Below are positions 1 through 61,965 of a DNA stretch of 64,000 bases, in pieces. Location: the NCBI GenBank assembly GCA_964016885.1, contig OZ024741.1:383842001-383906000 (forward strand), written 5' to 3'. The notes beneath the pieces are model-generated. The model ran no database searches. It saw only the letters and a program-made list of their open reading frames with translations, and was not told the DNA's origin. This DNA comes from Eledone cirrhosa (taxonomy: Eukaryota). Every line of letters starts with the position of its first letter. Position 1 is the first letter of the stretch. Made by a program: the position numbers and the translations under genes.

Positions 1-2222
1 AAGAAAAGGGTTTGGGGATGTGCTGAACAACTCCTAATCAACAAAACTGCGATGTCGGAGGTGCGACAACTTAGGAGGAATATGACTACAGTCTGGCTGG
101 ACTACAAGAAAGCTTTCGATTCTGTTCCCCACTCTTGGATGATAAAGGCCCTCCAACTTGCTAAAGTCCCAGACATTATTGTCAGAGCCATAGAGAGGCT
201 GTCTTCTTCTTGGGCTACTATCCTAAGGTTAAAGACAGAGAGGGAGGACTCTATTTTCACTGATAAAATAAAATACTGCAGGGGTATATTTCAGGGGGTC
301 AGTCTCTCTGTAATATTGTTCATCTTGTCATTAAACCCCTTGTCCTTTCTGCTCAAGAAATGTGAGGGATACATCATTGGCTCACAGGAGGACAGAAATA
401 CGAACCTAACCTATAACTTCTTTGTGGACGATCTGAAACTCTATGCCAAGAACATGGATGGGATGAAGAAAAATCTTGACCTGGTTACAATGTTCTCAAA
501 GGATATAGGAATGGAGTTTCGCCAAGATAAATGCTCATACATGACTATAAAGCGGGGAAAAACAACGACCCAATCTAGCAACATTGTCATCAATGGTCTA
601 ACTGTTTCACCGATATCTGATGAGGACTGCTACAGATACCTGGGGATAGATGAGAACATATCCTATAATGGTATCTGTAATAAAGAACGCGTAACCAGGG
701 AATACTACACCCGATTAAGAAAAATCTGGTCATCGGAACTCTCTGCGCAAAACAAACAGTGGCTCACAATGTGTTTGCTGTGCCTGTCCTAACACCAACG
801 TTTGGAATACTCAATTGGACGATAGACGAAATCCGAGCAGTTGATGTTGGAACTCGAAAAATACTGAACAACACCGGAAACTTCCACATCAACAGTGACA
901 TAGACCGCCTTTACTTGAAACGTAAGCAGGGAGGCAGAGGCCTAACATCAGTCCAGACAACATTTGAATGTCGCATCATATCTCTCCGACAACATCTACG
1001 AACCTCGAAGCGTAGGAGCCCGCTTCTCGAGCAAGTCTATCTGCATGAAACAGATAAGATCATGAGAGTTGGGAAGGAACTCCTTGAGAGATATTCCCTG
1101 TGTGATAATCAAAAACTCACACCCAGGGATGTCGCTCAGCAGTATCGCAGTGAATCCATGGATGAAAAACAGCATGCCTATCAGCAAAAAATCATGCATG
1201 GATATGTTGCCAGGAAGCTCCAAAGTGAGAGTAATATAGATAAGGAAAGTAGTCTATCTTGGACCAACAACCGCTATATTGGCTGCCACTTTGAAGGATA
1301 CGCTTTTACAATCCAAGAACAGGAAATTAACACGAAATACCTGATTCACAAAAGAGATAGTGATACAGGCAAAACACCTAGATGTGATAACAAGTGCAGA
1401 CTCTGCAGAACTAACATCGAGGATATCACCCATGTCATCAGCAGCTGCCCAAAGATGTCATCGCGGTACTATCTACCTATGAGGCATGATGTAGTGGCCA
1501 AAACACTGTACAATGCAGTTCGTAAAAAAGATAGCCCCGATAATACACACATTAAAAGCTATAACAATGTGGAAGACATCCATGTACATAATATGAAAGA
1601 GTACTGGTGGAATGTTCCTGTAAAACCCCAATAAAATGCAGGCATAACAGACCAGATATTATGATATGGGACAGGGAGAAGAAAACATGCACAGTAGTGG
1701 AAATTTGCTTCCCAGCAGATGCCAATATAATATCAAAGTTAGTGAAAAGGAGAATATTTATGCTGAACTGATGAGAAATCTGCAGATACTCCACCCTGAT
1801 TACACCTTCAGATTTATGCCTGTTATTATTGGGGCACTGGGATATGTTAGTAACTGCCTCAATACATATCTCGAGAAGCTGGGCTTCACAGGAACAGAAA
1901 GAACACAACTAGTTAGGAAATTACAAGTACAATCCATTAATGGAACAGTAAAAATATGTAAAACATTCCAAAAATTTTGCATCTACTAACTGCATATACA
2001 CATGTACAGATACAAAGCATATACACATGCACACATACAACTCAAAACATACACATCCACACATACGATAACATCCATATCTACACATGCATGCATGCAG
2101 ACATACATACATATCTACCTAGTTGATGTTGTGTAAATTCCAATGAGAGAGTCTTGTGTCTATGTTAGAAACCGACTCTCTCTCTATTGGTAAAACTTTG
2201 TGAAATTATAAAACCAGAAGAA
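1..2222 (+). mobile_element. R4/Dong-like non-LTR retrotransposon (RT + CCHC + RLE), frameshifted, 5' part outside the window
   Basis: ORFs 52-792, 759-1634 and 1666-1989 carry WLDYKKAFDSVPH, RGIFQG, FVDDLKLY, YRYLG, GGRGL, CRLC-x7-H-x4-C and RHD. HNRPDI lies in a shifted frame at about 1643. The 3' UTR has a stem-loop (about 2139-2190) and ends in (CATA)n. Confidence 0.9.
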
Positions 2223-8995: not shown

Positions 8996-9100
8996 TTATA
9001 ATATCAATGGATCCTCTGCAAGCTTTCTATATGTGCAACAAATAGCAGCTAAATCTTCATCAAATACCACCTCAGCAAAGAAGAAAATAGACATTAAATA

Positions 9101-9285
9101 ATTGTTTCTACTTTAGGCACAAGGCCAGCAATTACCCAGTGCATTACTGGTACTTTATTTTATCGACCCCGTAAGGATGAAAGGCAAAGTCAACCTCGGC
9201 GGGATTTGAACTCAGATCATAAAGGGACATAACTATGCTGGAAAGCATGGCGTCCGACCCTCTACCAATACTGCCAATCCACCAC
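9101..9285 (-). mobile_element. SINE family A full-length copy
   Basis: Near-identical to other copies; inverted relative to 8801-8995. Confidence 0.85.
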
Positions 9286-9664
9286 CTGTAAATAGCCATT
9301 AAATAATGTGGTTCTTATACATTATACGTGAAAAAGAATGGTGGAATGGTTAAGGCTGAAACATCTTTAATCATACGCCTTCTTAAACAAGACTCCTACC
9401 TATCATGTAGAATGCAGCATTTTCTTCTAAAACTATCCTGGAGCTGGTCGAAAAGCTTCAGTTTCGCATACATATGAGACTACGGTGATTAGGTGACAAT
9501 TTCAAACTAGTTTTATGGTATTTATCTACAGCTGTTGTGCCATGGGGCATCCAATAAATTAACCGATATGTCAAGTGTTGGCTTAATCTAATTCATTCCA
9601 CAAGCTCCTCAACAAGATTTCAGAACTGACCGAGAATTGGGACGATGACTTCAAGCAATATATT

Positions 9665-10599: not shown

Positions 10600-11490
10600 T
10601 CATATTACACAATTCTTGCTTCATTGGTATTTTGAGAGGAACATTTTTGAGATGAAAAACATGCAAACTTCCCACATGATAATTTTCAGATTTTATTGAA
10701 TCATCCATCTTAAATGAATTGATCGATCGATCTCAATAGTTTCCCCAATAAAGCATTTGTTGTAAAGGTAATTACACTATTGCAAGAAGCAAAGTAAAAC
10801 ATTCCTGAAATACATGGACACATTTTTTTTTTTTTTTTTTTTTTAATTCATCGTGATTTCAGTTTGTTGCTTTTTATTGTTGTTACCTTCAGGAAATATT
10901 AATACACATCTGAAATTGTATTGATTCTAACATAGGCCTAGGTTATAAATTAGCAATGAAGGAGTTGCCATGCCATTCCATGAGCCCATATCTCCTTGTG
11001 TAATCGTAGATGCGCCGTAGTGATACCATGTCAAGCGTATTTAAACCTAGTAGAGCTCATTCCTTTCCCAGTCTTAACACAATAGATTTCTTCCAGAGAA
11101 GCTGAGAGAGTGATCAGAAGAAAGATAGGAAGGGTGGGAGGGAGGTGGGAGAAAAATAATGGAAAAAACCACCCCAGCCCTGGACTATTATTACTTTATT
11201 GAACTTGAAATGATAAAAGACAATTTTTTCCTCGACGGAATTTGAACTCAGAGCGCAGATAACCAGGCCGTATACTACAAAGAATTATATCCGAAGGAAA
11301 TGTTAACTCGATATAATCAATTCTAGTAGTTTCATTTATCTTATCTATCCCTGAATCATAAAAGGCAACGGGTTAACCTAGCCGAGATCTCATGTCAGAA
11401 TGGAAAGAATCGGAACAAATGTCGCAAGATTTTAAATCCGGCATTTTAAGGATTTTGCAAATCCGCCGCGCTCACATCTAAAATTATAAT

Positions 11491-11883
11491 TATTTCTACT
11501 TTTGGCACAAGGCCAGCAATTATCCCAGTGGATTACTGGTCCTGTATTTTATTGATCCGGTAAGGATGAAAGGCAAAGTTAACCTCGGCAGCATTTGAAC
11601 TCAGACCATAAAGGGGCGTAACTTTATGCTACAAAGCATGGCGTCCAACCCTCTACAGTTACTGCCAATCCACCAGCCTTACATCTAAATTTATAATTGT
11701 TTCTACTTTTGGCACAAGACCAGCAATTATCCCAGTGTATTACTGGTGGTTTATTTTATCGACCCCGTAAGGATGAAAGGCAAAGTTAACCTCGGCGTAT
11801 TTGAACTCAGACCATAAAGGGCCGTAACTCTTTGCTGCAAAGCATGGCGTCCGACCCTCTACCGATACTGCCAATCCACCGCC
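11491..11883 (-). mobile_element. Two tandem SINE family A copies (11491-11675, 11696-11883)
   Basis: Both are preceded by the same flank acatctaaa.ttataatt. Confidence 0.85.
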
Positions 11884-12401
11884 CTTCTAAAATCTACATA
11901 AATATTATAATAATTGGTAGGAAGAACTCTCCACCTGGTTGCACTATATTCTAGAAACAACAGCCTAATTTCCCATAACTTACACAGTAATGGGAACACC
12001 TGTTACTATGGGTTTCCCCAGTCAAGTATGATTTAGAAAAACAACAATGACAAGTTTATAATTTATCTCGGACTACTACTGACTCTGTCTCTTAGAACTG
12101 CTGATTTTCATGGAATGTATCCAATGTGGGCGGGAGTTTGATCATCGGTGACGATTGAGATGTTGTCGGTAAATTCTAGTTAATAATTAATTGACATACT
12201 TTTAGTATTGTCATGTGACAGTGAATAATCAATTACAATGAGGATTAAACAAAAACCTATATACAATATCAAATTCGATACAATTCTTCTGGCATGATTA
12301 ACTATGCAAACCAGCCCCAATGGTTTGGTCGCAGTATTTAAAGATTATATGTTTGCTTGTTCTGTCAGTTAAGCAGGAGCTAAATAATAACACCTATTCC
12401 A

Positions 12402-20714: not shown

Positions 20715-21002
20715 TATAAGGAAAATAAATGAAATCGAAAATGCAACTGGAGTCTTTTTATATAAAAATATATATTTATTTGGTTCCTTTACCGGTTTCG
20801 CAGTTCTTCTGCTTTTCAAAAGTAGAGTTGAGATGGAGGGCTTGTGGTTTTTCTCAGATGTGAAATAAACCACAAACCCTCCATCTCAATTCTACTTTTG
20901 AAAAGCAGAAGAACTGCGAAACCGGTAAAGGAACCAAATAAATATATATTTTTATATAAAAAGACTCCAGTTGCATTTTCGATTTCATCTTTTTTCCTTA
21001 TA
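20715..21002. repeat. About 290-bp near-perfect palindrome carrying hammerhead motifs, next to (TA)n
   Basis: Arms about 20715-20855 and 20860-21002 are reverse complements. Confidence 0.9.
20895..20930 (+). ncRNA. Minimal type I hammerhead ribozyme-like motif, U3-A8 core variant (mirror copy on - at 20787-20822)
   Basis: CUU-UUGAAAA-GCAG(AAGAA)CUGC-GAAA-CCGG-UA-AAG. Confidence 0.6.
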
Positions 21003-21029: not shown

Positions 21030-21146
21030 AACAAGGAAAGTGTGGTAAGAAACCAGGTGGACCATAACGCACCAAAGTACTTGATACTTAGGGTAGTAGA
21101 GTGATTCGAAACGGCCGGTGTGGGCCATCGGAGTCCTGACTCTTTT

Positions 21147-21615: not shown

Positions 21616-24447
<2,832 letters not shown>

Positions 24448-24657
24448 ATAATTGCCAACATGGGTTTGTTTTTATTGATTTATTATTTTAAATCGAGACA
24501 GGCAAACTATATTTATTTGAATTAGTTTATTTCATTCTAGCTAACTTAGTCATTTACAATACAAACACATGTATTTACCATATATTAATTTATATTAATT
24601 TCGTTTCTGAATTTGTTTAGCAAGATTCTTTATCTGAAATCGTGTGTTGAAACCGAT

Positions 24658-25168
24658 ATTGTTATACTTTGGGAGGGTCATGTTGCCAATAAGAAACACA
24701 CGCACGAGTTGCTTTCACTTCAATTTATTATAATAAATTTATAAATTTAGCAATTTATAAATTTCTGGTTGGTTGGTTGGTTCCACAACCAGACAGTTGT
24801 TTATATATTGTCAAAGTTCTTTCGTCACACATTCTGTGACCTCTTCAATGACTGGGGATTCTTTTCTTTGTTTTTGTGCCTCTCCTTTGTTCTGTCCTAC
24901 GCCTGTCCCAACAAAATGGCGTAGGACAGAACAAAGGAGAGGCACAAAAACAAAGAAAAGAATCCCCAGTCACTGAAGAGGTCACAGAATGTGTGACGAA
25001 AGAACTTTGACAATATATAAACAACTATCTGGTTGTGGAACCAACGAACCAACCAACCAGAAATTTATAAATTGCTAAATTTATAAATTTATTATAATAA
25101 ATTGAAGTGAAAGCAACTGGTGCGTGTGTTTCTTATTGGCAACATGACCCCTCCCAAAGTATAACAAT
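24658..25168. mobile_element. About 510-bp palindromic element carrying hammerhead motifs (family B)
   Basis: Arms of about 245 bp are reverse complementary; a homologous palindrome lies at 31997-32524. Confidence 0.85.
24969..25011 (+). ncRNA. Minimal type I hammerhead ribozyme (mirror on - at 24810-24852 with C3U)
   Basis: GUCA-CUGAAGA-G-GUCACA(GAAUG)UGUGAC-GAAA-GAAC-UU-UGAC. Confidence 0.75.
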
Positions 25169-25310
25169 TTATATTAACTTGTATATATATACATATATAT
25201 ATATCGGTAGATAGCTAGAATGATACTGGATAAAACCAGTAAGAAAATTATTCATCTATATATACGAAAAGTAGAGTGTGAATATTAAAAGGGTTTTCTT
25301 CTCCAAGGTT

Positions 25311-28115: not shown

Positions 28116-28129
28116 CGAACAGATATATA

Positions 28130-28310
28130 ATTGTTTCTTTTTTTGGCACAAGGCTAGCAATTATCCCAATGCATTACTGGTACTTTATTTTATCGACTCC
28201 ATAAGGATGAAAGTTAACCCCGGCGGGATTTGAACTCAGACGATAAAGAGCCGTAACTCTATGCCTCAAAGCATGGCGTCCGACCCTCTACCGATACTGC
28301 CAATCCACCG
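28130..28310 (-). mobile_element. SINE family A copy
   Basis: Shared sequence with other copies. Confidence 0.8.
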
Positions 28311-28376
28311 TCCCGAACACATATATAATAACACAAATTCTTATTCGTTTCACGCTGGTTTGAAAAGGAAAAAAAG

Positions 28377-28620
28377 TATGTCACTTACTTCGTTATTCGG
28401 CAAAAGAAGGGAGAGAAGCTGACAGATACTGTTTCCCGCTGTTGGCGATCCTAATTTTTAAATTTTGCTGGACCGGCAATCGCTCTGTATAATCCGTTCC
28501 TGATTACTGGAATTCTATAAGGATCCAGCCTCTATAATTTTCGGCAAAGGATCGCCAACAGCGTAAAACTGAATCTGCTTCTCTCCACTCTTTTGCCGAA
28601 TAAAGAAGTTAGTGACATAG
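28377..28620. repeat. Imperfect inverted repeat, MITE-like fold-back
   Basis: tatgtcact.acttc.ttattcggcaaaaga...cgctgttggcgatcc is mirrored by ggatcgccaacagcg...tcttttgccgaataaagaagt.agtgacata. Confidence 0.7.
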
Positions 28621-30979: not shown

Positions 30980-31208
30980 AACGTTATAGTCACTTATATA
31001 TTATGAAATACTGTTGGCTTCACGATCACAATAATTTCTATACGTTTCATTTATTTATATATATATATATATATAAATGAAAAGTATAGAAATTATTGTG
31101 AGCGTGAAGCCAACAGTAATTGCCTTTCATCCTTACGGGGTCGAGAAAATAAAGTACCAGTAATGTACTGGGTAATTGTGGCCTTGTGCCAAAAGTAGAA
31201 ACCATTAT

Positions 31209-31735: not shown

Positions 31736-31825
31736 TGATAATAATGATGGCTGCGCGTTGCAAATGGTGGTGCATATGAAAAAGTAAGTCCTTCATCAGT
31801 GACCCTCCAGCCGTCCCAGGCATTT

Positions 31826-31866
<41 letters not shown>

Positions 31867-31869
31867 TAC

Positions 31870-31943
<74 letters not shown>

Positions 31944-31996
31944 CGTTTCTGAATTTGTTTAGCAAGATTCTTTATCTGAAATCGTGTGTTGAAACC

Positions 31997-32518
31997 GATA
32001 TTGTTATACTTTGGGAGGGTCATGTTGCCAATAAGAAACACACGCACCAGTTGCTTTCACTTCAATTTAATTTATTAAATATTTATAAATTTACAAATTT
32101 ATAAATTTCTGGTTGGTTGGTTGGTTCCACAACCAGATAGTTGTTTATATATATATAGTCATAGTTCTTTCGTCACACACTCTGTGACCTCTTCAGTGAC
32201 TGGGGATTTCTTTCTTCGTTTCTGTGCCTTTCCTTTCTTCTATCCTACGCCATTTTGTTTGTCAAACAAAATGGCGTAGGATAGAAGAAAGGAAAGGCAC
32301 AGAAACGAAGAAAGAAATCCCCAGTCACTGAAGAGGTCACAGAGTGTGTGACGAAAGAACTATGACTATATATATATAAACAACTATCTGGTTGTGGAAC
32401 CAACCAACCAACCAGAAATTTATAAATTTGTAAATTTATAAATATTTAATAAATTAAATTGAAGTGAAAGCAACTGGTGCGTGTGTTTCTTATTGGCAAC
32501 ATGACCCTCCCAAAGTAT

Positions 32519-32524
<6 letters not shown>
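31997..32524. mobile_element. About 530-bp essentially perfect palindromic element (family B), between (TA)n tracts
   Basis: Centre attttgttt-gtc-aaacaaaat at about 32262. The extension 31940-31996 matches 24599-24657. Confidence 0.9.
32323..32367 (+). ncRNA. Minimal type I hammerhead ribozyme (mirror on - at 32157-32201)
   Basis: AGUCA-CUGAAGA-G-GUCACA(GAGUG)UGUGAC-GAAA-GAAC-UA-UGACU. Confidence 0.8.
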
Positions 32525-32553
<29 letters not shown>

Positions 32554-32557
32554 TATA

Positions 32558-33220
32558 TATATTATAATTGAATATAAAAGTAAAACGAATACAGATATAT
32601 ACATATATGTGTTCAAATCGCAAGGGACCAGATTCACTAAGATGAAAAGAATACTAACTATAGACAATTGGGTTTGCCTGTCCCAATTTAAGAAAAAAAC
32701 AAGAAAATAAATACAAACCGGAATTGTGGTAACTACCAATCACCCAGACAGCTTAGTGCTGTTTGGCAATATTAATTGTCAATAGAATTACGAATTCTTC
32801 TCATAAGTGGGTGATGAATTAGTATACTAGACACTTCTATGTATATTAAGGACTGAATAGTGTGCTATATATATAATAACGCACATGGTATCTTAGCGTG
32901 TCTCACAAACTTACACCACTAAAAATAGAAGCCAGGTTTATTCGACATTTGAAATAGCTCAACAAATTAACGGAGCCGAATATGCCAAAGGTATATATTG
33001 AGTTAGGAACTCAAAATAGTCTCTTACAATAAAATAGCTCTAAAAAAGAGATATCTCCGAGGCGTATATTATAATTGAATATAAAAGAAAAACGAACACA
33101 GATATATACATATATGTGTTCAAATCGCAAGGGATCAGATTTGCTAAGGTGAAAAGAATACTAACTATAAACAATAGGGTTTACCTGTCTCAATTTAGGA
33201 AAAAAAAATCAAGAAAATAA
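32558..33220. repeat. About 150-bp direct repeats (32558-32710, 33066-33220) flanking unique sequence
   Basis: tattataattgaatataaaag...gttcaaatcgcaaggga...aagaaaataaa occurs twice. Confidence 0.75.
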
Positions 33221-33894
33221 AGGAGATGAAGAAAGAGAGGCAGAGGGGAGTACCAACAGAGATGGAACGACAAAAAGAGATCGATAAAATAAACATAAAA
33301 AAAGTACTGGAGATGATATGATCGATTGGATCCTCTTAAAGCGGTGCCCCAGAATGGTCGCAGTCTAATGACAGCAATCAGTAAATGAACGATATGAGGA
33401 CATGGAGGAGAGAGTGAGAGAGAGAGTGGGAGAGAGAAAGAGAGAGAGAGATGGGGACAGACAGTGGCTGAGAAATTAGTGAAGAGAACGGGAGAGAAAT
33501 ATATTGGCTCGACAAGTATAACATTTGTAGAAATTTATAGAAAAGAAAACAAATTTCTACAAATTTCATAGTTGACGACCCAATATATGTATACGTGAGA
33601 AGGTATGAGATAGAGAAAGGAGTGTGGCGGTGAGTGGGTTGACAGAGAGAAAAACATTTCATCTAGGCTTATAGAGGGAGAGGGAAAGTGGGAGTGTGAG
33701 AGGGGGAGCGAGAGAGTAAGGAAGGAGGAGAGTGAGATAGAGCGAGAGAAAGCATGTATGTTGTATGACGAGACAGATGCAGTGAGAGCGAGAGAGTGTG
33801 TGTGCGTGTATGGATTGATAGAAAACGGGAGAGAGAGAGTGTGTGTGTACATGTGGATAGACAGGGTGATATTCTGTATGTGTATAGAGACAGA

Positions 33895-33980
<86 letters not shown>

Positions 33981-34589
33981 TAGGCAGACAGAGAGTGAGA
34001 GAAAAAGAGAGAGAGAGAGCGATAGACAGAGAGAGAGGGGAAGAGAAAGAGAGAGAGAGATAGAGAGACAGACAGAGAGAGAGAGAGAGACAGAGAGACA
34101 GAGAGAGAGCGATGGGCAGACAGAGTGACATAGAGAGAAAAAGTAAACAGGTGTATATGTATGTAGATAAAGTTAGTGTGTGTGTGTAGACAGACAGGCA
34201 GAGAGTGTATATATGTGTGTATATGAGTATATATAGCTTGCTTGTATAGATAGAGGGACAGAGGTGGAGTGTGTTGCGTGTGGATGGATTGGCAGATATA
34301 GTGTAGGTGTGTGTGTGCGTGTATGTGTCTGTGTACGTGCATGTGTGTGTGTGCGTGAATGTGTGTGGGTGTGTGTGTGCGTGCGTGCGTGTGTGTGTGT
34401 TTATGTCTATGGATAGCGTGGGTATGCAAGTAACAGAAAAAAATAGAGAAAAGAGGAGTCATATATATATATACATATATATATGCACATACAAACATAT
34501 ATATACATATATACATACACATACAAATGAATACATACACATACAGGTAGATTGATAGATAGAGAGAGGGGGAGGGGGAGAGGGGGAAG

Positions 34590-35735
34590 AGAGGAGAGAA
34601 GTGAGAAGATAGAGGAGAGATGTGGGAAGAGAGAGAGGAGATTTGTGGGAAGAGAGAGGAGATATGTGGGAGAAAGAGGAGAAAGGTGAGAAGAGAAAGA
34701 GGAGAGAGGTGGGAGAGAGTGGATAGTTGAGGGAGAGAGAAGATGGAAGTGGGAGAGAGCGGAGATACGTGGAAAGAGAGAGGTGAGGTGATAGAGGAGA
34801 GATGTGGGAAGAGAGAGAGGAGATATGAGGGAAGAGAGAGGAGATATGTGGGAGAAAGAGGAGACAGGTGAGAAGAGAAAGAGGAGAGAGGTGGGAGAGA
34901 GTGGATAGTTGAGGGAGAGAGAAGATGGAAGTGGGAGAGAGCGGAGATACGTGGAAAGAGAGAGGTGAGGTGATAGAGGAGAGATGTGGGAAGAGAGAGA
35001 GGAGATATGAGGGAAGAGAGAGGAGATATGTGGGAGAAAGAGGAGAAAGGTGAGAAGAGAAAGAGGAGAGAGGTGGGAGAGAGTGGATAGTTGAGGGAGA
35101 GAGAAGATGGAAGTGGGAGAGAGTGGAGATACGTGGAAAGAGAGAGGTGAGGTGTGGATGAGAGAGGTGGGAAGAGAGAGGTGAGAGGTGGGATGAGAGA
35201 GGTGGGAAGATAGAGGAGAGAGGTGTGGGATGAAAGAGGTGGGAAGAGAGAGGTGAGGTGTGGGATGAGAGAGGTGGGAAGAGAGAGTTGAGAGGTGGGA
35301 TGAGAGAGGTGGGATGAGAGAGGTGGGAAGAGAGAGGTGAGAGGTGGGATGAGAGAGGTGGGAAGAGAGAGGAGAGAGGTGTGGGATGAGAGAGGTGGGA
35401 AGAGAGAGGTGAGGTGTGGGATGAGAGAGGTGGGAAGAGAGAGGTGAGGTGTGGGATGAGAGAGGTGGGAGAGAGAGGTGAGGTGTGGGTGGGATGAGAG
35501 AGGTGGGAAGAGAGAGGAGAGAGGTGGGATGAGAGAGGTGGGAAGATAGAGGAGAGAGGTGGGATGAGAGAGGTGGGAAGAGAGAGGTGAGGTGTGGGAT
35601 GAGAGAGGTGGGAAGAGAGAGGAGAGAGGTGTGGGATGAGAGAGGAGAGAGGTGAGGTGTGGGATGAGAGAGGTGGGAAGAGAGAGGAGAGAGGTGTGGG
35701 ATGAGAGAGGAGAGAGGTGATGTGTGGGATGAGAG
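34590..35735. repeat. Purine-rich minisatellite: 182-bp unit (about 3 copies), then shuffled GAGAGGTGGGA-type units
   Basis: ggagatacgtggaaag occurs at 34761, 34943 and 35125. Confidence 0.9.
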
Positions 35736-36599
35736 AGAAACAAATGGAGTTGATATTAATAACATGTGTAAAGATGTATATAGGAAAGATAATGAGAGAA
35801 CAAGTGATAGGGCACGGGATTGATGATGATGGTGGTGGTGGTGGTGGTGGTGGTAGTGGTGGTGGTGATAGTGATGGTGGTGGTGGTAGTGGTGGTAGTG
35901 GTGGTAGTGGTGGTAGTGGTGGTGGCGATTGGAGTGACCATGTGAGAGAAGTGATGGTGATAATGGTGATGATGACAATGATGGTGATGAAGTCGATAAT
36001 TGTTATTTAAATGACCAAGTGAAGAAGTGGTGATGAGGAAGATATTTCAGGTTGAGTTGTTAAGTTGATGATGACGGTGATGACGGTGATGACGGTGATG
36101 ACGGTGATGACGGTGATGACGGTGATGACGGTGACGTGAGATAGATATGGTGTTGATGAGGGAGATGTGGGTTGAAGTTGATGATGAGAGGAGAGTGGGA
36201 TAGTGATGTTGATAAGGATAATGTCACTGTTGGTGATGATGGCGGCGTTGAGAAAGATGGGAGGTAGAAATGGTGATGGTGGTGGAGATGAGAGTGAGGT
36301 GATGTAGTGATGTTAATGATGAAATAGATGTGAGATCGATATGCTGGTGATGATAGAGATGGAAATGAAAATAATGTTACTGATGTTGATGGTGATGAGA
36401 GAAAGATGATGATGTTGATGATGATGTTGATGATGAGAGATATGAGGTATGGGTTGGGATAATGGGTGAGATGTGAAATGGTAATGGTAAGGAAAGAGAA
36501 AGGAGGTTGACAGGACGATGGTCAGAGAGATGTGAGGTATAAATGGCGATGATAATGACGACGACAATCGTGATGAGAGATGTGAGGGTGATAATTATA

Positions 36600-36786
36600 A
36601 TTGTTTCTACTTTTGGCACAAGGCCAGCAAATACTCCAGTGCATTACTGGTACTTTATTTTATCGACCCCGTAAGGATGAAAGGCAAAGTTAACCACGGC
36701 GCGATTTGAACTCAGACCGTAAATGGGCTTAACTCAATGCTACAAATAATGGCCTCCGAGCCTCTACCGATACTGCACATCCACCA
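36600..36786 (-). mobile_element. SINE family A copy
   Basis: Shared sequence with other copies. Confidence 0.8.
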
Positions 36787-37045
36787 ACGGTGATAAAAAA
36801 GCGAGTAAGAGAAACTGAGACAGAGAGAGAGGGGGGAGTTGTGGCTGCGATGAAAAAGATGTATTTTGTCGACTGCAATGAAAGATCTGTGGTTGCGATG
36901 AGGTCGGTGATAATGGCGAAGATGTATGAGATGTGACTTTGGGAAGTGATGTTGGCGATGGCGATGAGAGAGACGATGTGAAGTAGTGATGAGGATGAGA
37001 GACGTGAGGAACAGATTGTAATAATCATGAGGGAGATGTGAGATA

Positions 37046-37230
37046 ATTGTCTCTACGTTAGGCACAAGGCCAGCAATTACCCAGTGCATTACTGGTACTT
37101 TATTTTATCGACCCCGTAAGGATGAAAGGCAAAGTTAACCTCGGCGGGATTTGAGCTCAGTCCGTAAAGGGACGTAACTATGCTACAAAGCATGGCGTCT
37201 GATCTTCTACCGATACTGCCAATCCACCCC
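37046..37230 (-). mobile_element. SINE family A copy
   Basis: Shared sequence with other copies. Confidence 0.8.
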
Positions 37231-37490
37231 CGTTAGAATGTGAAATAATGATGATGATGATAATGATGATGATGATGATGATGACGACGATGGTGATGAT
37301 GATCTTAAGGAGGAGGAGGAGGAGGCTAAAGTGAAGGAACAGGAGGTGGAACAAGATCAAGAGTTGGAGATGGTGATGAAAGAGATGAGAGGTAGTGATG
37401 AAGAGGATAACACTGAGGAGAGAGATATGAGGAATAAATTGTGAAGAAAAAGATGTTAGAAATGGTGATGAGAGATGTCAGGTAGTGATA

Positions 37491-37817
37491 ATTTATTCTT
37501 CACTCATATACAGGTATGAAAATACACTTTTGACAGGTGCAATGTGTCCCAACACAGAAGAGTCGAACTCCCACCGTCATATCCCCCATCTCTCTGTATA
37601 GTGAGCAAATAGGGTTCCACGTGCTGGCCGCCCCACAGCCCCGGCGGACAGAATGGAGAAGGCGTTACTCCGGAGGACGGTAAGGGAGATGCGCTGGAAG
37701 AACCATTCCATCTCGCTCCCACCTGCGGCTGGCCAGCTCAGCGCCTATGGTGGTGAGTAGGGAGGTAGCTCTAGGGCCAAGGACACCAGAAGTCTCCATT
37801 GCCAAGGGCACGACCAC
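37491..37817 (-). mobile_element. 5'-truncated CRE-clade non-LTR retrotransposon 3' end
   Basis: Minus strand reads VVPLAMETSGVLGPRATSLLTTIGAELA / EMEWFFQRISLTVLRSNAFSIL with one frameshift. AATAAA lies at the 3' end. Putative TSD agtgata. Confidence 0.7.
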
Positions 37818-37879
37818 AGTGATAGTTATGGTGGTGATGAAAAGAAAGAAAGAGTGAGAGAGAGGGAGAGCGAGAGAGA

Positions 37880-37938
<59 letters not shown>

Positions 37939-38269
37939 AGAGAGAGAGAGAGAGAGAGAGTATAAGATAAAAAGAGAGGTGAAGCTTGAATGCGATGAAA
38001 GAGATTTATAGCTTTGATAATGAAGACTACAATGAAAATGATGTGATTCCGTGGAGATAGGTGATGTTAGAGATTGTATGCGAGATGTGAGTTGAGGAAG
38101 TGATGTTGACGACGAGAGAGATGAGGTGAGGTCGGAGTGATGATGATAGTGATGTGAGAGATATGAGGTAGTGAAGGTGATGTTGGTGATGATATGTTAA
38201 ATGTAATGAAGTGGTAGATATGTTGGCGATGAAGTGAGAGTTGTCAGATAGTGCTGGCGATGTGATGTG

Positions 38270-39195
38270 ATTATGGTGATGATGTGAGAGATGTGATGAA
38301 GTGGTAGATATGTTGGCGATGAAGTGAGAGAGGTGAGGTAGTGGTGGTGATGTGAGAGATGTGAAGTGGTAGATATGTTGGCGATGAAGTGAGAGAGGTG
38401 AGGTAGTGGTGGTGATGTGAGAGATGTGAAGTGGTAGATAAGTTGGCGATGAAGTGAGAGAGGTGAGGTAGTGGTGGTGATGTGAGAGATGTGAAGTGGT
38501 AGATATGTTGGCGATGAAGTGAGAGAGGTGAGGTAGTGGTGGTGATGTGAGAGATGTGAAGTGGTAGATAAGTTGGCGATGAAGTGAGAGAGGTGAGGTA
38601 GTGGTGGTGATGTGAGAGATGTGAAGTGGTAGATATGTTGGCGATGAAGTGAGAGAGGTGAGGTAGTGGTGGTGATGTGAGAGATGTGAAGTGGTAGATA
38701 TGTTGGCGATGAAGTGAGAGAGGTGAGGTAGTGGTGGTGATGTGAGAGATGTGAGGTAGTGGTGGTGATGTGAGAGATGTGAAGTGGTAGATATGTTGGC
38801 GATGAAGTGAGAGAGGTGAGGTAGTGGTGGTGATGTGAGAGAGGTGAGGTAGTGGTGGTGATGTGAGAGATGTGAGGTAGTGGTGGTGATGTGAGAGATG
38901 TGATGAAGTGGTAGATATGTTGGCGATGATGTGAGAGAGGTGAGGTAGTGGTGGTGATGTGAGAGATGTGAGGTAGTGGTGGTGATGTGAGAGAGGTGAG
39001 GTAGTGGTGGTGATGTGAGAGATGTGAGGTAGTGGTGGTGATGTGAGAGATGTGGTGAAGTGGTAGATATGTTGGCGATGATGTGAGAGAGGTGAGGTAG
39101 TGGTGGTGATGTGAGAGAGGTGAGGTAGTGGTGGTGATGTGAGAGATGTGATGAAGTGGTAGATATGTTGGCGATGAAGTGAGCGAGGTGAGGTA
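38270..39195. repeat. Minisatellite, 65-bp unit with shorter sub-units
   Basis: tgtgagagatgtgaagtggtagatatgttggcgatgaagtgagagaggtgaggtagtggtggtga. Confidence 0.9.
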
Positions 39196-39384
39196 TAGGT
39201 GGTGATATTAACGATAGTAGAGCTAATGTGGGGCATTGATGGTGATGAAGGAGAGATGTGAATTAGTGAAGTGATGTTAACGATGAGAGAGATGGTGTGA
39301 GGTAATGATGACGTGAATGGTGATGTGAGTTAGGGATAATGATCGTAGTAATGATATGAGAGATCTGAGGAAATAATGATGTTG

Positions 39385-39870
39385 GTGATGTGATGTGGCT
39401 GATGATGTGAGAGATGTGAGGAAGTGATGGTGATGGTGATGTGATGTCGCTGATGATGTGAGAGATGTGAGGAAGTGATGGTGATGGTGATGTGATGTGG
39501 CTGATGATGTGAGAGATGTGAGGAAGTGATGGTGATGGTGATGTGATGTCGCTGATGATGTGAGAGATGTGAGGAAGTGATGGTGATGGTGATGTGATGT
39601 GGCTGATGATGTGAGAGATGTGAGGAAGTGATGGTGATGGTGATGTGATGTGGCTGATGATGTGAGAGATGTGAGGAAGTGATGGTGATGGTGATGTGAT
39701 GTGGCTGATGATGTGAGAGATGTGAAGAAGTGATGGTGATGGTGATGTGATGTGGTTGATGATGTGAGAGATGTGAGGAAGTGATGGTGATGGTGATGTG
39801 ATGTGGCTGATGATGTGAGAGATGTGAGGAAGTGATGGTGATGGCGATGTGATGTGGCTGATGATGTGAG
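39385..39870. repeat. Minisatellite, 51-bp unit, about 9 copies
   Basis: gtgagagatgtgaggaagtgatggtgatggtgatgtgatgtggctgatgat. Confidence 0.9.
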
Positions 39871-40084
39871 GTAGTGTTGGTGATGGTGATGATGACGTGA
39901 GCGGTGTCAGGCAGTATTGGTGACATTGATGATGATGGTGATGAAGGAGTGATGTGAGTTAATGAAGTTATGTTGACGATGAAAGAGACGATGTGAGACG
40001 GTAATGAAGTGATGATATGAGAGTTATGGGAAACAATGATGAAATGTGGCATATGTCATAGGGATGATGGTAAAGATGAGATGT

Positions 40085-40218
40085 GATAGTGATAGCGATG
40101 ATGATAATGATAGTGATGATGATGATGATGGTGATGATGGTGATGATTTTGATGATGGTGATGATGGTGGTGATGGTGATGATGATAGTGATGATGATGA
40201 TGATGATGATGATATGAT

Positions 40219-40251
<33 letters not shown>

Positions 40252-40466
40252 GTGATGATGATGTTGATGGTGGTGATGATGATGATGATCATGGTGATGA
40301 TGATGATGGTGATAATGGTGACGATGTGAGTTAGTGATGGTGATGATGTGAGGTAGGGATGGTGATCAGAGAGATTTAAAACAGTGATAGTATTGAGAAA
40401 GCCGAGGTGGGGTGGTGAAGATGATGATGATGATAAAGATGACGATGATGATGATGATAATAATAA

Positions 40467-40498
<32 letters not shown>

Positions 40499-40568
40499 AT
40501 GATGGTTGTGGTGATAATGATAATGATGATGACGACGAGGACGATGATAATGATGATGATGATGATAG

Positions 40569-40600
<32 letters not shown>

Positions 40601-40709
40601 GTGATGATGTTGCTGTTGCTGCCGCTAATGATTATGATGATGAAGACGGCGATGATGATGACGATGATGACGATAATTAAGAGGAGGCTGAAGAGGAGGG
40701 TGACGGTGG

Positions 40710-40742
<33 letters not shown>

Positions 40743-40930
40743 CCATGATGCTGATGCTGGTGGTGGTGGTGATGCTGGTCTTGATGGTGGTGGTGCTGCT
40801 GCTGCTGATGATGATGGTGATAATGACGATGATGATGACTATGATGATGACTATGCTGGGCGTGATGGTGCTGCTGCTGCTGCAGTTGCTGCTGCTGCTG
40901 CTGATGATGATGATGATGAATGTGATGAAG
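40085..40930. repeat. Degenerate (GAT)n/(GCT)n trinucleotide field
   Basis: Direct read. Confidence 0.9.
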
Positions 40931-41463
40931 TAAATTTGCGATGGGTATGATGTGGCGCTGAAATGAAATATAAAATAAAGACAAAAGAAATGTACAGGTC
41001 ACACCTATGTAGGTGTCACTAGTCTCCGACGATGTTGTGCCTGATTGGAGCTTTCTGGAAATGAAGTGTCTTGCTGACGAACACAACGTGCCAGGCGGTC
41101 CTAGATTTCGAAAGGGCCGTAACTCTATGCCGCGAAACATATTATCCGGCCCTCTACCGATTCTGCCCATCTACCGCCAATCGAACGACAATAATTATTT
41201 CTGCTTTTGGCACAAGGCCAGCAATTATCCCAGGGCTACGATCTTAGGATCATGAGTTCAACACCCTAACCACTAGTTGATGATGACAGCAGAGATATAA
41301 AATAGTTATGGTGATGCTGACAATAAGACAGATTGTGTGATGATGTGATGATGATGGTAGCGATGATGAGATGATATGAGATAATGATAATGACACTGGT
41401 GACGATATATGCTAGTGATATCGAGGACAGCGATGAAAGAAATGATGTGAAGGTGTACTGATA

Positions 41464-41554
<91 letters not shown>

Positions 41555-41610
41555 GAATAATCGAGTATCGAAAAATCGGCGCACGAGTTCACGATAAACA
41601 AAATTCGAAA

Positions 41611-41709
<99 letters not shown>

Positions 41710-41857
41710 GTTATAGGAATAACCAAAGAATACTTAGAAATATATATATATATACATATATATAGCGCTGGCCTCGGGACCCCCCTGCTGGTCCTTTACC
41801 TTGTTCTGGTGACGCAGCTCGATGGAGCATGCAACTACTGATATACTCATGTTTATA

Positions 41858-41904
41858 GGCTCTGATGATTCCCGCCATGGTGTATGGATGAAACACTGTT
41901 AGCT
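41858..41904 (+). ncRNA. Minimal type I hammerhead ribozyme
   Basis: GGCU-CUGAUGA-U-UCC..GGA-U-GAAA-CACUG-UU-AGCU, followed by AATAAA and a terminus that is inverted at 41707-41742. Confidence 0.6.
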
Positions 41905-41989
41905 AATAAAACAATGTATTTCTAAGTACTCTTTGGTTATTCCTATAACTATATATAACAAACATCACGGACGCTCTATCTCAAAATTA

Positions 41990-42025
41990 TTTTTGAAAAG
42001 CATTAGAAATGCGCAACCGGTAAAA
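41990..42025 (+). ncRNA. Degenerate U3-A8 hammerhead motif (GAAA changed to GCAA)
   Basis: UUU-UUGAAAA-GCAUU(AGA)AAUGC-GCAA-CCGG-UA-AAA. Confidence 0.45.
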
Positions 42026-42706: not shown

Positions 42707-43088
42707 CATACATTCCTATATATATATATATATATATATATATACTTATATATATATATATATATATATATACAGTATATATATATATATATATATATAT
42801 ACAGTATATATACATATATATATATATATAGGAAAATGTATGACCCGACGGCAGAGGTTATTCCGTTTCGACGGCTATTTCTGGATGTCCAGAAATAGCC
42901 GTAAAAACGGCTTGAGCTCTGCCGTCAGGGTCATATATTTTCCTATTACCCACTCTACTACCCTAAGTATTGAGTACTCTGGTGCTATGGTCCATCTGGT
43001 TCCTTACCACAACTCCTTCGTTATATATATATATATATATATATAAAGATAGCGTAGAAAATACAATGCAACGGGAGGAAACAATACC

Positions 43089-43130
43089 ACCACTGACGAT
43101 GTTGCAGATGTGCAACGAAAGAACTTTGAT
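43089..43130 (+). ncRNA. Minimal type I hammerhead ribozyme (divergent family B)
   Basis: ACCA-CUGACGA-U-GUUGCA(GAUG)UGCAAC-GAAA-GAAC-UU-UGAU. The element ends in gaccctcccaaagtataacaa(ta)n at about 43335. Confidence 0.75.
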
Positions 43131-43329
43131 AAACTATATATATGTGTTTGTGTCTATATTGTATCTGTATTTTTGACCGTTGGTCAGTCAATGGCAACAT
43201 TGAGGACCGAATAAATTAAATTAACCGATATAAAAGACACAGAAGCGAAAAGCGAAAACCAACCAAACAGTGAGTGTGTTCTGTTATTAATTCTGGCAAT
43301 ATTACACATATACGACCCTCCCCAAGTAT

Positions 43330-43393
<64 letters not shown>

Positions 43394-54852: not shown

Positions 54853-54910
54853 ACTGTATATATATATATATGTATGTATGTACCGGATCTGGTGTATGCA
54901 TCTACATTAC

Positions 54911-55072
54911 AGGGTCGGATGCCATGCTTTCCAGCATAGTTACGTCCCTTTACGATCTGAGTTCAAATCCCGCCGAGGTTGACTTTGCCTTTCATCCTTA
55001 CGGGGTCGATAAAATAAAGTACCAGTAATGCACTGGGTAATTGCTGGCCTTGTGCCAAAAGTAGAAACAATT
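54911..55072 (+). mobile_element. SINE family A copy
   Basis: Near-identical to the reverse complement of 9101-9260. Confidence 0.85.
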
Positions 55073-56335
55073 ATATCTTTCTGCACTAAGGCTATATTTT
55101 TTAATTATTCCTAAGTGCAATATATTTTCCCAGACAACCATCTGCTCTCTTCATATTGCCTTACAATAGACAATTGAGATATTGTCAAAGTGGAGGGGAA
55201 TTTCATTGTAATCGAGGCAAAACTACTGCAATGATAGTTATTACAGTAATGCAGCAATTATAGTTTATTAAGTGGAATTGTAATTTTAGATCAATTGACA
55301 CTTGAGACTAACTCTCTAAAACTATTTGATTCGATTTTGAGATGAGTGGGAAATGTAATAATATAACAGTATAATATAACTACATACGACTTCAAAATAG
55401 TGACCAACCACACAGTGACTGTTAGCATTAACTTACAGTTACGAGCTTATTTATTTCCCATTTCTCTCCGTTTGATGAATGTGTGAATAGACACAGCAAT
55501 GATTTAGAGCTGTGAAGATTTTATCAAGATTATCCAACTCGTAGAGTTATGGGAACCAAAATCCTGGGTTAAGGGACCAGATATCTAGTATAGCTTTCTA
55601 AAAATAAATATGAAAATTCTTTATGATTTTCTCCCCTCTACTATTCATGGTTATCTATATGTAAAGTAAACGAAGGCTACTAACATCTTTTGAAATTATA
55701 CTGGCGATCATGAGAACATATAAATAAAATTATTCGGGGTTCAGGGATCGTTAAAAAGTTAAAACCCCTTGATTTACAAGTTCGCAATGGTGAAAACTCC
55801 TCTTGGCCATTCGATTAGGTAGAAATAACAAACCAGGTCAAACTCTAGACTCTTACAAAAGGAAGGAGACGTTTGATAAATTAGTTTTAAATTCAATGTT
55901 TGAAAAAAACAAAAACGACAAGGTAGTTGTGGGTGGGACATTTTGATCCTTGGTCTACACAGTCAGAGCTGACTTGGCGCTTAACAACTGGTATATTATG
56001 TTGCTATATATACTTTATATTTGTTGAACAAAAGTTCTAATTGTGACCAATTTCTCTGTACACATCCTGTTTGTTCGATAAAAATAAGTTGTTTCTGTGA
56101 ATAGAATAGAAAATAAAACCAACAGGTTGTTTGAGGGACGCATTCTTTCCTACACTGTGCTGAGTCTTGCTATATTCTGTGAACTATTTTCTCCTCCATT
56201 CACTCCCTTATCTTTTTCTGTCATTCAATACATTATTTTTTTCGTTTTTCCTTTCAAACGTTTCCTTTATTTACGCAACGGTCATTTTCTCTCTCTATCT
56301 TTATCAAACTCTACCCTTCTCTCTCCCTCTCCCTC

Positions 56336-60048: not shown

Positions 60049-60968
60049 AGACGAAAACATTTTAAATGTCTTTCCGCGTTATCAAACCTGAAAACTTGAG
60101 AAACATAAATACCCATTCATTCATCTTTATTTACTATAAATATTATTTCTTCCCTCTTTCTCTGTTTCTCTGCATCCCCTTCTCCCCCTCCCATTCTCCA
60201 TCCCCCCCCTATCTATCTATCTATCTATCTATCTATTTATCTTATCAATCCTTATAATGGATGAATTTCCGAGAGGTCTGGCGTGATGACCACATTTAAA
60301 AAAGTATTCAATACACTGACAAATATAGACATCTTTATTTTATATAGAAATGACTACTACGGGACTAGAACTGGTTTCTTTCATTCGTATTAAAATCATC
60401 AGGAAATTTTGTGTGACTTTCTCATGATTTTATGTAAATGAAATCATTTCTTTCAATCGCTCCTATCTATATTGTCTCTGTCTATCGTTGTTGTTGTTTT
60501 TACCTTTCCATTGCTCCTTATCTATGAAGTGACTTCCCACTTCTGAGACAGTTTCTAGACACCTTTTGAATTTCAAGTTACTGTTAAACATATCTTGATG
60601 CAGAAGCTCAACGAGTGCATTCCTATTGTACACACAAACGCACGCACGCAAACACACACACACATACACACACGCACGCACACAAAAACACACACACATA
60701 CACACTGAAGCACGCACGCAAACACACAAACACACACTCATACACACACACACACACATACAAAGAGACAGTAACTTAGACATACCACACCCACGTAATT
60801 TTTTACTCTTAGCTTACGCATACACTCAGCAACTGACACACAGACACATTCAATAACATACAATCGCACATAAACACACACACACACTCAGTTACAGGCA
60901 TCGATACATATCCAATAACTTACACACAGATACACTGAATAACTTGTACGTAACACGCACACACAAAT

Positions 60969-61186
60969 AATTGTTTCTACTTTTAGCACAAGGCCAGCAA
61001 ATACCAGTGTATTACTGGTACTTTATTTTATCGACCCTGTAAGGATGAAAGGCAAAGTTAACCTCGGCGGGATTTGAACTCAGACCATAAAGGGCCGTAA
61101 ACTCTTTGGTGCAAAGCATTACAACACTTTATAGTCTGAGTTCAAATCCCGCCGAGGTTAACTCGGCGGGATTTGAACTCAGACCA
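60969..61186 (-). mobile_element. SINE family A copy with local fold-back rearrangement
   Basis: SINE body followed by gtctgagttcaaatcccgccgag-gttaa-ctcggcgggatttgaactcagac. Confidence 0.8.
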
Positions 61187-61447: not shown

Positions 61448-61716
61448 AAGAGAAAACACAGGTAAGCATTAAGAGAAGGATTTTATCCAGGTATTTACGA
61501 CCGTTTCATTGGTAAGTGCAACCTTATATTGCTATATTGCAAATAGCAGCCACTCAATTATAATTGGTGATCACAGTTCAATTTTCAAAATAGTGAACAA
61601 CAATTATAATGAGTGGCTGCTATTTGCAGTATAGCAATATAAGGTTGCACTTACCAATGAAACGGTCGTAAATACCTGGATAAAATCCTTCTCTTAATGC
61701 TTACCTGTGTTTTCTC

Positions 61717-61718
<2 letters not shown>
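61448..61718. repeat. About 270-bp palindrome abutting (TA)n; partial third terminus at 61916-61962
   Basis: Arms 61448-61565 and 61600-61718 are reverse complementary. Confidence 0.9.
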
Positions 61719-61857: not shown

Positions 61858-61918
<61 letters not shown>

Positions 61919-61965
61919 AGAAAACACAGGTAAGCATTAAGAGAAGGATTCTATCCAGGTATTAG

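Follow-up and report, generated by a model that had tools for sequence, protein, structure and literature searches.

Head-to-head hammerhead-bearing palindromes in Eledone cirrhosa DNA as candidate Penelope-like element insertions whose inverted arms most likely arise at insertion

How do long palindromes come to recur within one stretch of DNA, folding back at nearly the same point and carrying the same one-sided extension, and yet match far better between the two arms of one locus than between loci? The question is raised by the 64,000 nucleotides of Eledone cirrhosa DNA analysed here (the window), which is animal DNA rich in microsatellites and in which a first-pass annotation had reported two separate palindromes of this kind. 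Both were recovered, one (L1) at 24658-25168 as originally placed and the other (L2) with its limits refined to 31998-32526. Their parts are as follows.

24598-24657, minus strand: L1 tail, 60 nt, same sequence as the L2 tail
24658-24903, minus strand: L1 left arm, tail-bearing, with a mutated hammerhead core (C3U at 24848)
24904-24917, no strand: L1 asymmetric spacer, 14 nt, made of 6 nt (TGTCCC) and 8 nt of family sequence
24918-25168, plus strand: L1 right arm, without tail
31814-31939, no strand: (TA)n target tract on the left side of L2, with a shorter (TA)n tract beyond the right arm
31940-31997, minus strand: L2 tail (the one-sided extension), 58 nt, prolonging an ATG-started frame from the arm
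31998-32261, minus strand: L2 left arm, tail-bearing, a pLTR-like unit with its sense on the minus strand
32252-32272, no strand: L2 fold centre, 10-nt mirror halves flanking 1 nt at 32262
32263-32526, plus strand: L2 right arm, a tailless inverted copy with (AT)n beyond it and its final 2 nt ambiguous with the flank

The two arms of L2 (264 nt each) are 100% complementary and separated by a single nucleotide, while L1 matches its own inverse at 94.6% over 520 columns (24658-25168), with mirror symmetry ending at 24903/24918. Between L1 and L2 the identity is 89.9% over 596 columns. When the four arms were aligned, those of L2 showed no differences in 252 columns and those of L1 three substitutions and two indels, whereas L1-right differs from L2 by 14 substitutions and L1-left by 17. 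Fourteen of these 17 substituted sites are common to both arms of a locus, which bears out the first-pass observation that locus-specific differences mostly appear in both arms; likewise, the proposed comparison of arm divergence, made here for L1 and L2 only, gives 0 and 3 substitutions within a locus against 14-17 between loci. The shared extension of about 58 bp was also upheld, as the tails (58-60 nt) are identical at all 60 nt compared up to the flank. The nearly common fold point was confirmed as well: the fold points are clustered, but L2 has a 1-nt loop and L1 a 14-nt asymmetric spacer, in which the TGTCC of TGTCCC repeats 24893-24897. The left arm of L1 has the tail that is missing on the right, and the right arm has, in the spacer, 8 nt of family upstream sequence that are missing on the left. 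Since each arm thus carries family sequence that the other lacks, neither is a plain copy of the other.

Hammerhead motifs were sought on both strands by a structure-aware scan, with a relaxed scan over the window as a second pass. The strict scan returned three motifs.

32323-32367, plus strand: minimal type I hammerhead in the L2 right arm, predicted to cut after 32362
32157-32201, minus strand: mirror hammerhead motif in the L2 left arm
24969-25011, plus strand: intact minimal hammerhead motif in the L1 right arm

The motif at 32323-32367 has a stem I of 5 bp, an extra nucleotide after A9, a stem II of 6 bp and a stem III of 2 bp. The earlier statement that each arm holds a ribozyme is therefore correct as to the motif, which is present in all four arms, and has to be amended as to its integrity, the strict scan finding it intact in three of four and the L1 left arm carrying C3U. 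As the two hammerheads of one palindrome lie on opposite strands, one transcript carries just one in sense. The relaxed scan yielded five cores in the window, comprising the three motifs above, one at 43093 within a third copy described below (copy 3) and one at 60402, which was set aside as unrelated and without support. When copy 3 was compared with the other hammerheads, 3 of 12 pairs had both members changed and pairing held in 47 of 48 cells, a level reached by 3 of 500 shuffles; this covariation is based on four distinct sequences, with every change coming from one of them. Rfam gave no match at gathering score across the window, and at E<=10 there was no hammerhead for 20000-45000 among the 150 of 207 matches listed, all of them sub-threshold and of hairpin type, so that the ribozyme call depends on the motif scan and covariation. 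By predicted folding, the long hairpin reaches -465 kcal/mol against -11.7 for the ribozyme fold, so that in a read-through RNA the hairpin would prevail over the ribozyme. Another open frame, which spans the L1 hammerhead, was given no weight as evidence: in L2 it is interrupted by a stop, and those of its changes that look synonymous sit at free ribozyme positions.

Marks of insertion were found at L1, and the window holds one more copy of the repeat.

24587-24598, plus strand: 12-nt direct repeat, left copy; the repeat overlaps the AT-rich ends of the element
25166-25177, plus strand: 12-nt direct repeat, right copy
43046-43335, plus strand: copy 3, a diverged single arm between (TA)n tracts, with its hammerhead core at 43093
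31942-32023, minus strand: ATG-started frame of 27 codons running from the arm end through the tail

The perfect 12-nt repeat covers both L1 junctions, and a match of this kind arose in 131 of 200,000 AT-rich control draws; read from the sequence, it is a target-site duplication (TSD) of 8-12 nt. Its position across both junctions indicates that L1 was inserted as one unit. No TSD is discernible at L2 or copy 3, because both sit in (TA)n. Copy 3 has no tail, its end coinciding to the base with that of the tailless arms. The L2 frame begins at an ATG located in the arm, 24 nt from its end, and on weak evidence it might be a candidate start of the parent ORF: in shuffled sequences the fixed frame was open in 16% and any frame in 42%, so the tail frame alone is not significant, and of the common tail variants in public contigs of run X1 (introduced below) the one at 24640 is synonymous and the one at 24654 is not, as the frame was read by hand. 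No RT or GIY-YIG gene linked to the repeat was found in the 64,000-nt window, with its three copies. A search with a 31-residue frame, a short query whose last residues extend into the flank, gave four matches (E 5e-6 to 9e-4) that we judged to be due to chance; they are repeat proteins aligned to it through 3-6 stretches, and no RT or GIY-YIG family occurs in any of them. The Atlas yielded no usable match to the 31-residue peptide, and DNA pattern scans for the parent found nothing in viral contigs nor in metagenome contigs, the latter scanned twice.

The layout of a fold-back with a one-sided extension and (TA)n flanks is common in the window, where at least three others were seen (20715-21002, 61448-61718 and 42828-42946; 95%, 92% and 85% self-complementary). 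Their extensions measure about 55-140 nt and hold no clear ATG-started frame, and the fold-backs have no hammerhead core; they are possibly the ends of other Penelope-like element (PLE) families, of Naiad-like type. A single-arm piece of 61448-61718 lies at 61916-61963, and the extension of 42828-42946 resembles 21031-21103. Shorter or more decayed palindromes lie at 28377-28619, 31006-31121 (mirrored about a (TA)n tract), 33499-33588 and 61056-61184 (two nested fold-backs inside a SINE-like copy). The SINE-like family (about 190 nt, more than 15 copies, 75-97% alike) is one that we take to resemble the coleoid cephalopod SINE core. To the right of L2 lies a 133-nt direct repeat (32558-32690 and 33065-33197, 92% identical, about 507 nt apart), and tandem arrays with a strong G skew and periods of 9, 28, 35 and 65 nt take up about 8 kb at 34000-42000. 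The dispersed elements of the window are listed here.

1-1634, plus strand: broken non-LTR retrotransposon, Pfam RVT_1, then a CCHC-type C-terminal part in another frame
21911-24440, plus strand: LINE copy, in two frames, containing Pfam RVT_1; its 3' end lies some 150 nt to the left of L1 and is a common repeat in X1 in its own right
9098-9286, 11486-11886, 28124-28313, 36597-36786, 37043-37231, 54908-55075 and others: SINE-like copies

To place the two loci within their family, public contigs were compared with the L1 stretch only (flank, tail, left arm and centre) in run X1, possibly the assembly's own sample, in X4, another sample of the same organism, and in X5 and X6, from other organisms. 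Part of the arm is present in 20 of the 24 public runs listed, from 15 studies, and six contain at least half its words; no RNA run appears among the listed runs that contain it. The L1 stretch was matched by 17,082 contigs in X1, 5 in X5 and 27 in X6, the last two runs showing the presence of similar sequence and no more. Between 24608 and 24893 every X1 bin has a summed depth of 0.93-1.95 million; the value is 243,380 across the tail end and 7,941 immediately beyond it, and the centre bin has 199,137. Since summed depth is not copy number and contigs break at palindrome centres, we take these values solely to show that the family is abundant and that most of its copies cover the arm in full. 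At least 165 X1 contigs leave the repeat at the tailless boundary (24656) into AT-rich DNA (18 of the 651 loose ends listed). Beyond the other end, at least 42 contigs (39 from X1, 3 from X6) continue past 24903 in common upstream family sequence, and one 2,018-nt X4 contig extends beyond the fold point. At the centre there are at least six different indel variants within 24904-24909 (12 of 16 listed) and, in X1 and X4, at least five asymmetric junctions into the sense arm at 24910-24911 (15 of 96 joints listed), with the arm cut at 24650, 24686, 24822, 24836 or 24852; the compared stretch could reveal only junctions entering 24910-24911. The family has two fixed outer ends and varied centre junctions. 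That the fold points are clustered yet not identical points to separate events and argues against one master palindrome.

We consider it very probable that L1 and L2 are short insertions of a candidate PLE, each comprising a pLTR, a tail and a head-to-head inverted pLTR from the same insertion, in AT-rich or (TA)n DNA. Four structural traits make the repeat behave like a PLE pLTR: both loci have an adjacent inverted 5' pLTR copy, head to head; the family has two fixed ends and an optional tail at one of them, borne by one of two arms at both loci; a minimal type I hammerhead, by its motif traits, lies inside the pLTR; and L1 has a short TSD in an AT-rich target. As the searches above found no parent RT/endonuclease gene, any clade assignment would be provisional. 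The first-pass annotation had offered two origins for the second arm, formation at each insertion, as for inverted pLTRs of Penelope type, or later homogenisation. The former agrees with the 12-nt repeat at L1 and the varied centre junctions, and the inverted arms most likely arise at insertion.

Homogenisation by gene conversion or hairpin-templated repair would make the shared differences copies of later mutations, and it would account both for the 14 of 17 sites shared by the arms and for the identity of the L2 arms. The unshared changes speak otherwise, for the L1 arm substitutions at 24848, 24706 and 24794 are all minority alleles in X1, the other letter making up 99%, 99.8% and 81% of its depth; being rare in the family, they indicate that the arms drift unrepaired. 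Only two shared differences could be checked against the family (40 of 84 variant sites listed), and both occur there: at 24832 the difference is one of the family's common polymorphisms (35% of X1 depth), and a 4-nt TATA indel separating L1 from L2 recurs in X4, X5 and X6. Moreover, had the 14 shared differences arisen after insertion, about three would be expected in the unpaired tail, which shows none (P ~0.03). Homogenisation is thus disfavoured, though possibly it acted at some sites, and as a general account we give it very little credence. It is also very unlikely, in our estimate, that the palindrome itself replicates in the manner of a MITE or hairpin retroposon, with one master copied whole. 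Such a master could explain the fixed unit length, the near-flat summed depth along the arm, the common fold point and the TSD round the whole unit, but it would not give L1 and L2 different centres or leave at least six centre variants and at least five asymmetric junctions in the contigs. The one-sided tail spoils the terminal inverted repeats, a single-arm copy exists, and arms that match within a locus nevertheless differ by 14 substitutions between loci; the symmetric terminal inverted repeats and inherited centre of a MITE or foldback DNA transposon are replaced here by a one-sided tail and differing centres.

That the palindromes are artefacts of library or assembly, arising from fold-back chimeric reads or from polishing that equalised the arms, is hardly credible to us. 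The L2 arms are 100% identical and set in (TA)n, so that polishing may have raised their identity, no contig listed spans the whole L1 stretch, and the contig comparison covered L1 and not L2. At L1, however, the arms differ and the target is duplicated, centre-crossing contigs occur in X1 and in the second sample X4, and chimeras would not keep two fixed ends. Finally, the loci might be kept by host selection as sources of hairpin RNA, supplying dsRNA to ADAR or RNAi or silencing the family. A read-through transcript would be predicted to fold into a 250-bp duplex burying the ribozyme, and PLE copies give small RNAs in a rotifer (PMC3846280). No sign of selection accompanies this: the arms of L1 are drifting apart, one of the hammerheads carries a mutation, and the window contains several other similar fold-backs, as expected of an insertion by-product; we regard such a role as very improbable.

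How, then, might insertion produce the second arm? Under the PLE reading, a GIY-YIG endonuclease/RT protein encoded elsewhere would nick AT-rich DNA, and reverse transcription would begin internally, at either of the two sites that delimit the tail. On its way the RT would traverse the uncut ribozyme, some 90-100 nt short of the fold point, and would halt at a fixed 5' end of the template, probably a transcript start inside the pLTR, whence the recurring fold point. Copy 3, whose 5' start lies by eye near the fold-point motif, seems to fit such a fixed transcript start, while the contigs running upstream count against it. Within this explanation, the second arm would derive from the same source, somewhat more probably than not by fold-back, the tip being trimmed by the endonuclease or repaired; the joining of two cDNAs primed from two nicks is given a little under an even chance. 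A plain fold-back of tail-bearing cDNA alone does not explain L1, L2 is compatible with either route, and two loci cannot decide between them. The resulting copies would probably be dead on arrival, and their arms would afterwards diverge independently. LINE-1 offers a precedent in the 5' inversions made by twin priming, in which the inverted segment is likewise formed at insertion and the junction carries microhomology or short inserts. LINE-1 inversions do not duplicate the inverted part, whereas both arms of the palindromes here cover the same sequence.

A more specific form of the two-cDNA route is possible, and we advance it tentatively as rather unlikely: the family would be mostly pLTR-only, with internal RT start on the 5' pLTR and run-off, and the inverted arm would be a second cDNA from an opposite-strand nick. 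The second cDNA would start at the other RT start site, the two would be joined at their 3' ends, and the fixed transcript start would lie beside CAAGATGGCG, which we take to be a YY1-like motif. If true, a single mechanism would account for the tail, the inverted arm and the recurrence of the fold point, and subfamily-diagnostic SNPs in many genomic pairs could test it from sequence alone. In the titles and abstract openings found, with subscription papers outside this coverage, there was no proposal of twin priming for PLE inverted pLTRs. More broadly, fold-back and the joining of two cDNAs could be told apart directly at the genomic level with this family, given its many subfamilies, its two fixed ends and its numerous independent centre junctions. 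Being perfect and present in high copy, the 250-bp hairpins might supply dsRNA and fragile sites too. In repeat annotation such copies may be mistaken for MITEs or microRNA precursors; Rfam matches to miRNA families, all below threshold, were numerous here.

As objects, the palindromes would be ordinary PLE debris, with an architecture already in print: head-to-head inverted pLTRs, one-sided tails and opposite-strand hammerhead pairs. In PLEs an inverted 5'-truncated copy often adjoins the pLTR and a 30-40-bp tail is found at one end (PMC8557442), against 58-60 nt here, and palindromes at head-to-head junctions are abundant and have been interpreted as self-priming (PMC3846280). Pen2a_Av of Adineta vaga has its inverted pLTR head to head at the 5' end, as here; its pLTR holds 12 codons, or 22 with the tail (PMC3846280), compared to the 27 codons of our non-significant frame. 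The pLTR is about 250 nt here and 193-218 in Pen2a_Av and canonical EN+ PLEs (PMC3846280; PMC8557442; Drosophila virilis Penelope, PMC2377424), and the TSD enclosing the entire unit, of about 8-12 nt, compares with 9-10 bp in PLEs (PMC3846280; PMC8557442). An AT-rich target is common to our palindromes and canonical EN+ PLEs; unlike the latter, the palindromes consist of pLTR, tail and inverted pLTR without an ORF body between. (TA)n is a favoured target of some PLE clades, and all three copies sit in (TA)n or AT-rich DNA, as in the Neptune and Naiad clades (PMC8557442). Naiads, however, are without canonical hammerheads, whereas the copies here carry the motifs, and Neptune is defined by RT phylogeny and a Cys-rich RT-EN linker (PMC8557442), whereas the repeat here is known without an ORF. 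Penelope transcription begins inside the pLTR (PMC2377424), and in vitro AT-rich DNA is cut on both strands by a PLE protein, which also extends both, with two internal RNA start sites delimiting the tail and uncut RNA as the substrate (PMC11167929). How PLE inverted pLTRs and tails are formed is still listed as open (PMC8557442; PMC11167929), and passages of PMC13282606 and PMC7334843 add nothing on palindromes.

The hammerheads resemble the minimal type I motifs of metazoan PLEs (PMC4209133) in their CUGANGA/GAAA core, the extra nucleotide after position 9, G10.1-C11.1, a 6-bp stem II, a 4-5-bp stem I and a 2-bp stem III. Loop 3 is AA here and not palindromic, in contrast to the palindromic loop 3 of the PLE consensus, and our ribozymes are predicted from motif and covariation. 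As monomers, related minimal motifs show poor cleavage, and the same study reports opposite-strand hammerhead pairs spaced by 100-700 bp, probably derived from truncated PLEs (PMC4209133). Non-LTR retrozymes (bioRxiv 10.64898/2026.07.22.740005) are likewise non-coding, related to PLE pLTRs and equipped with a type I hammerhead, but they form head-to-tail tandems, whereas the copies described here are head-to-head pairs or a single arm, none of the three in the window being tandem.
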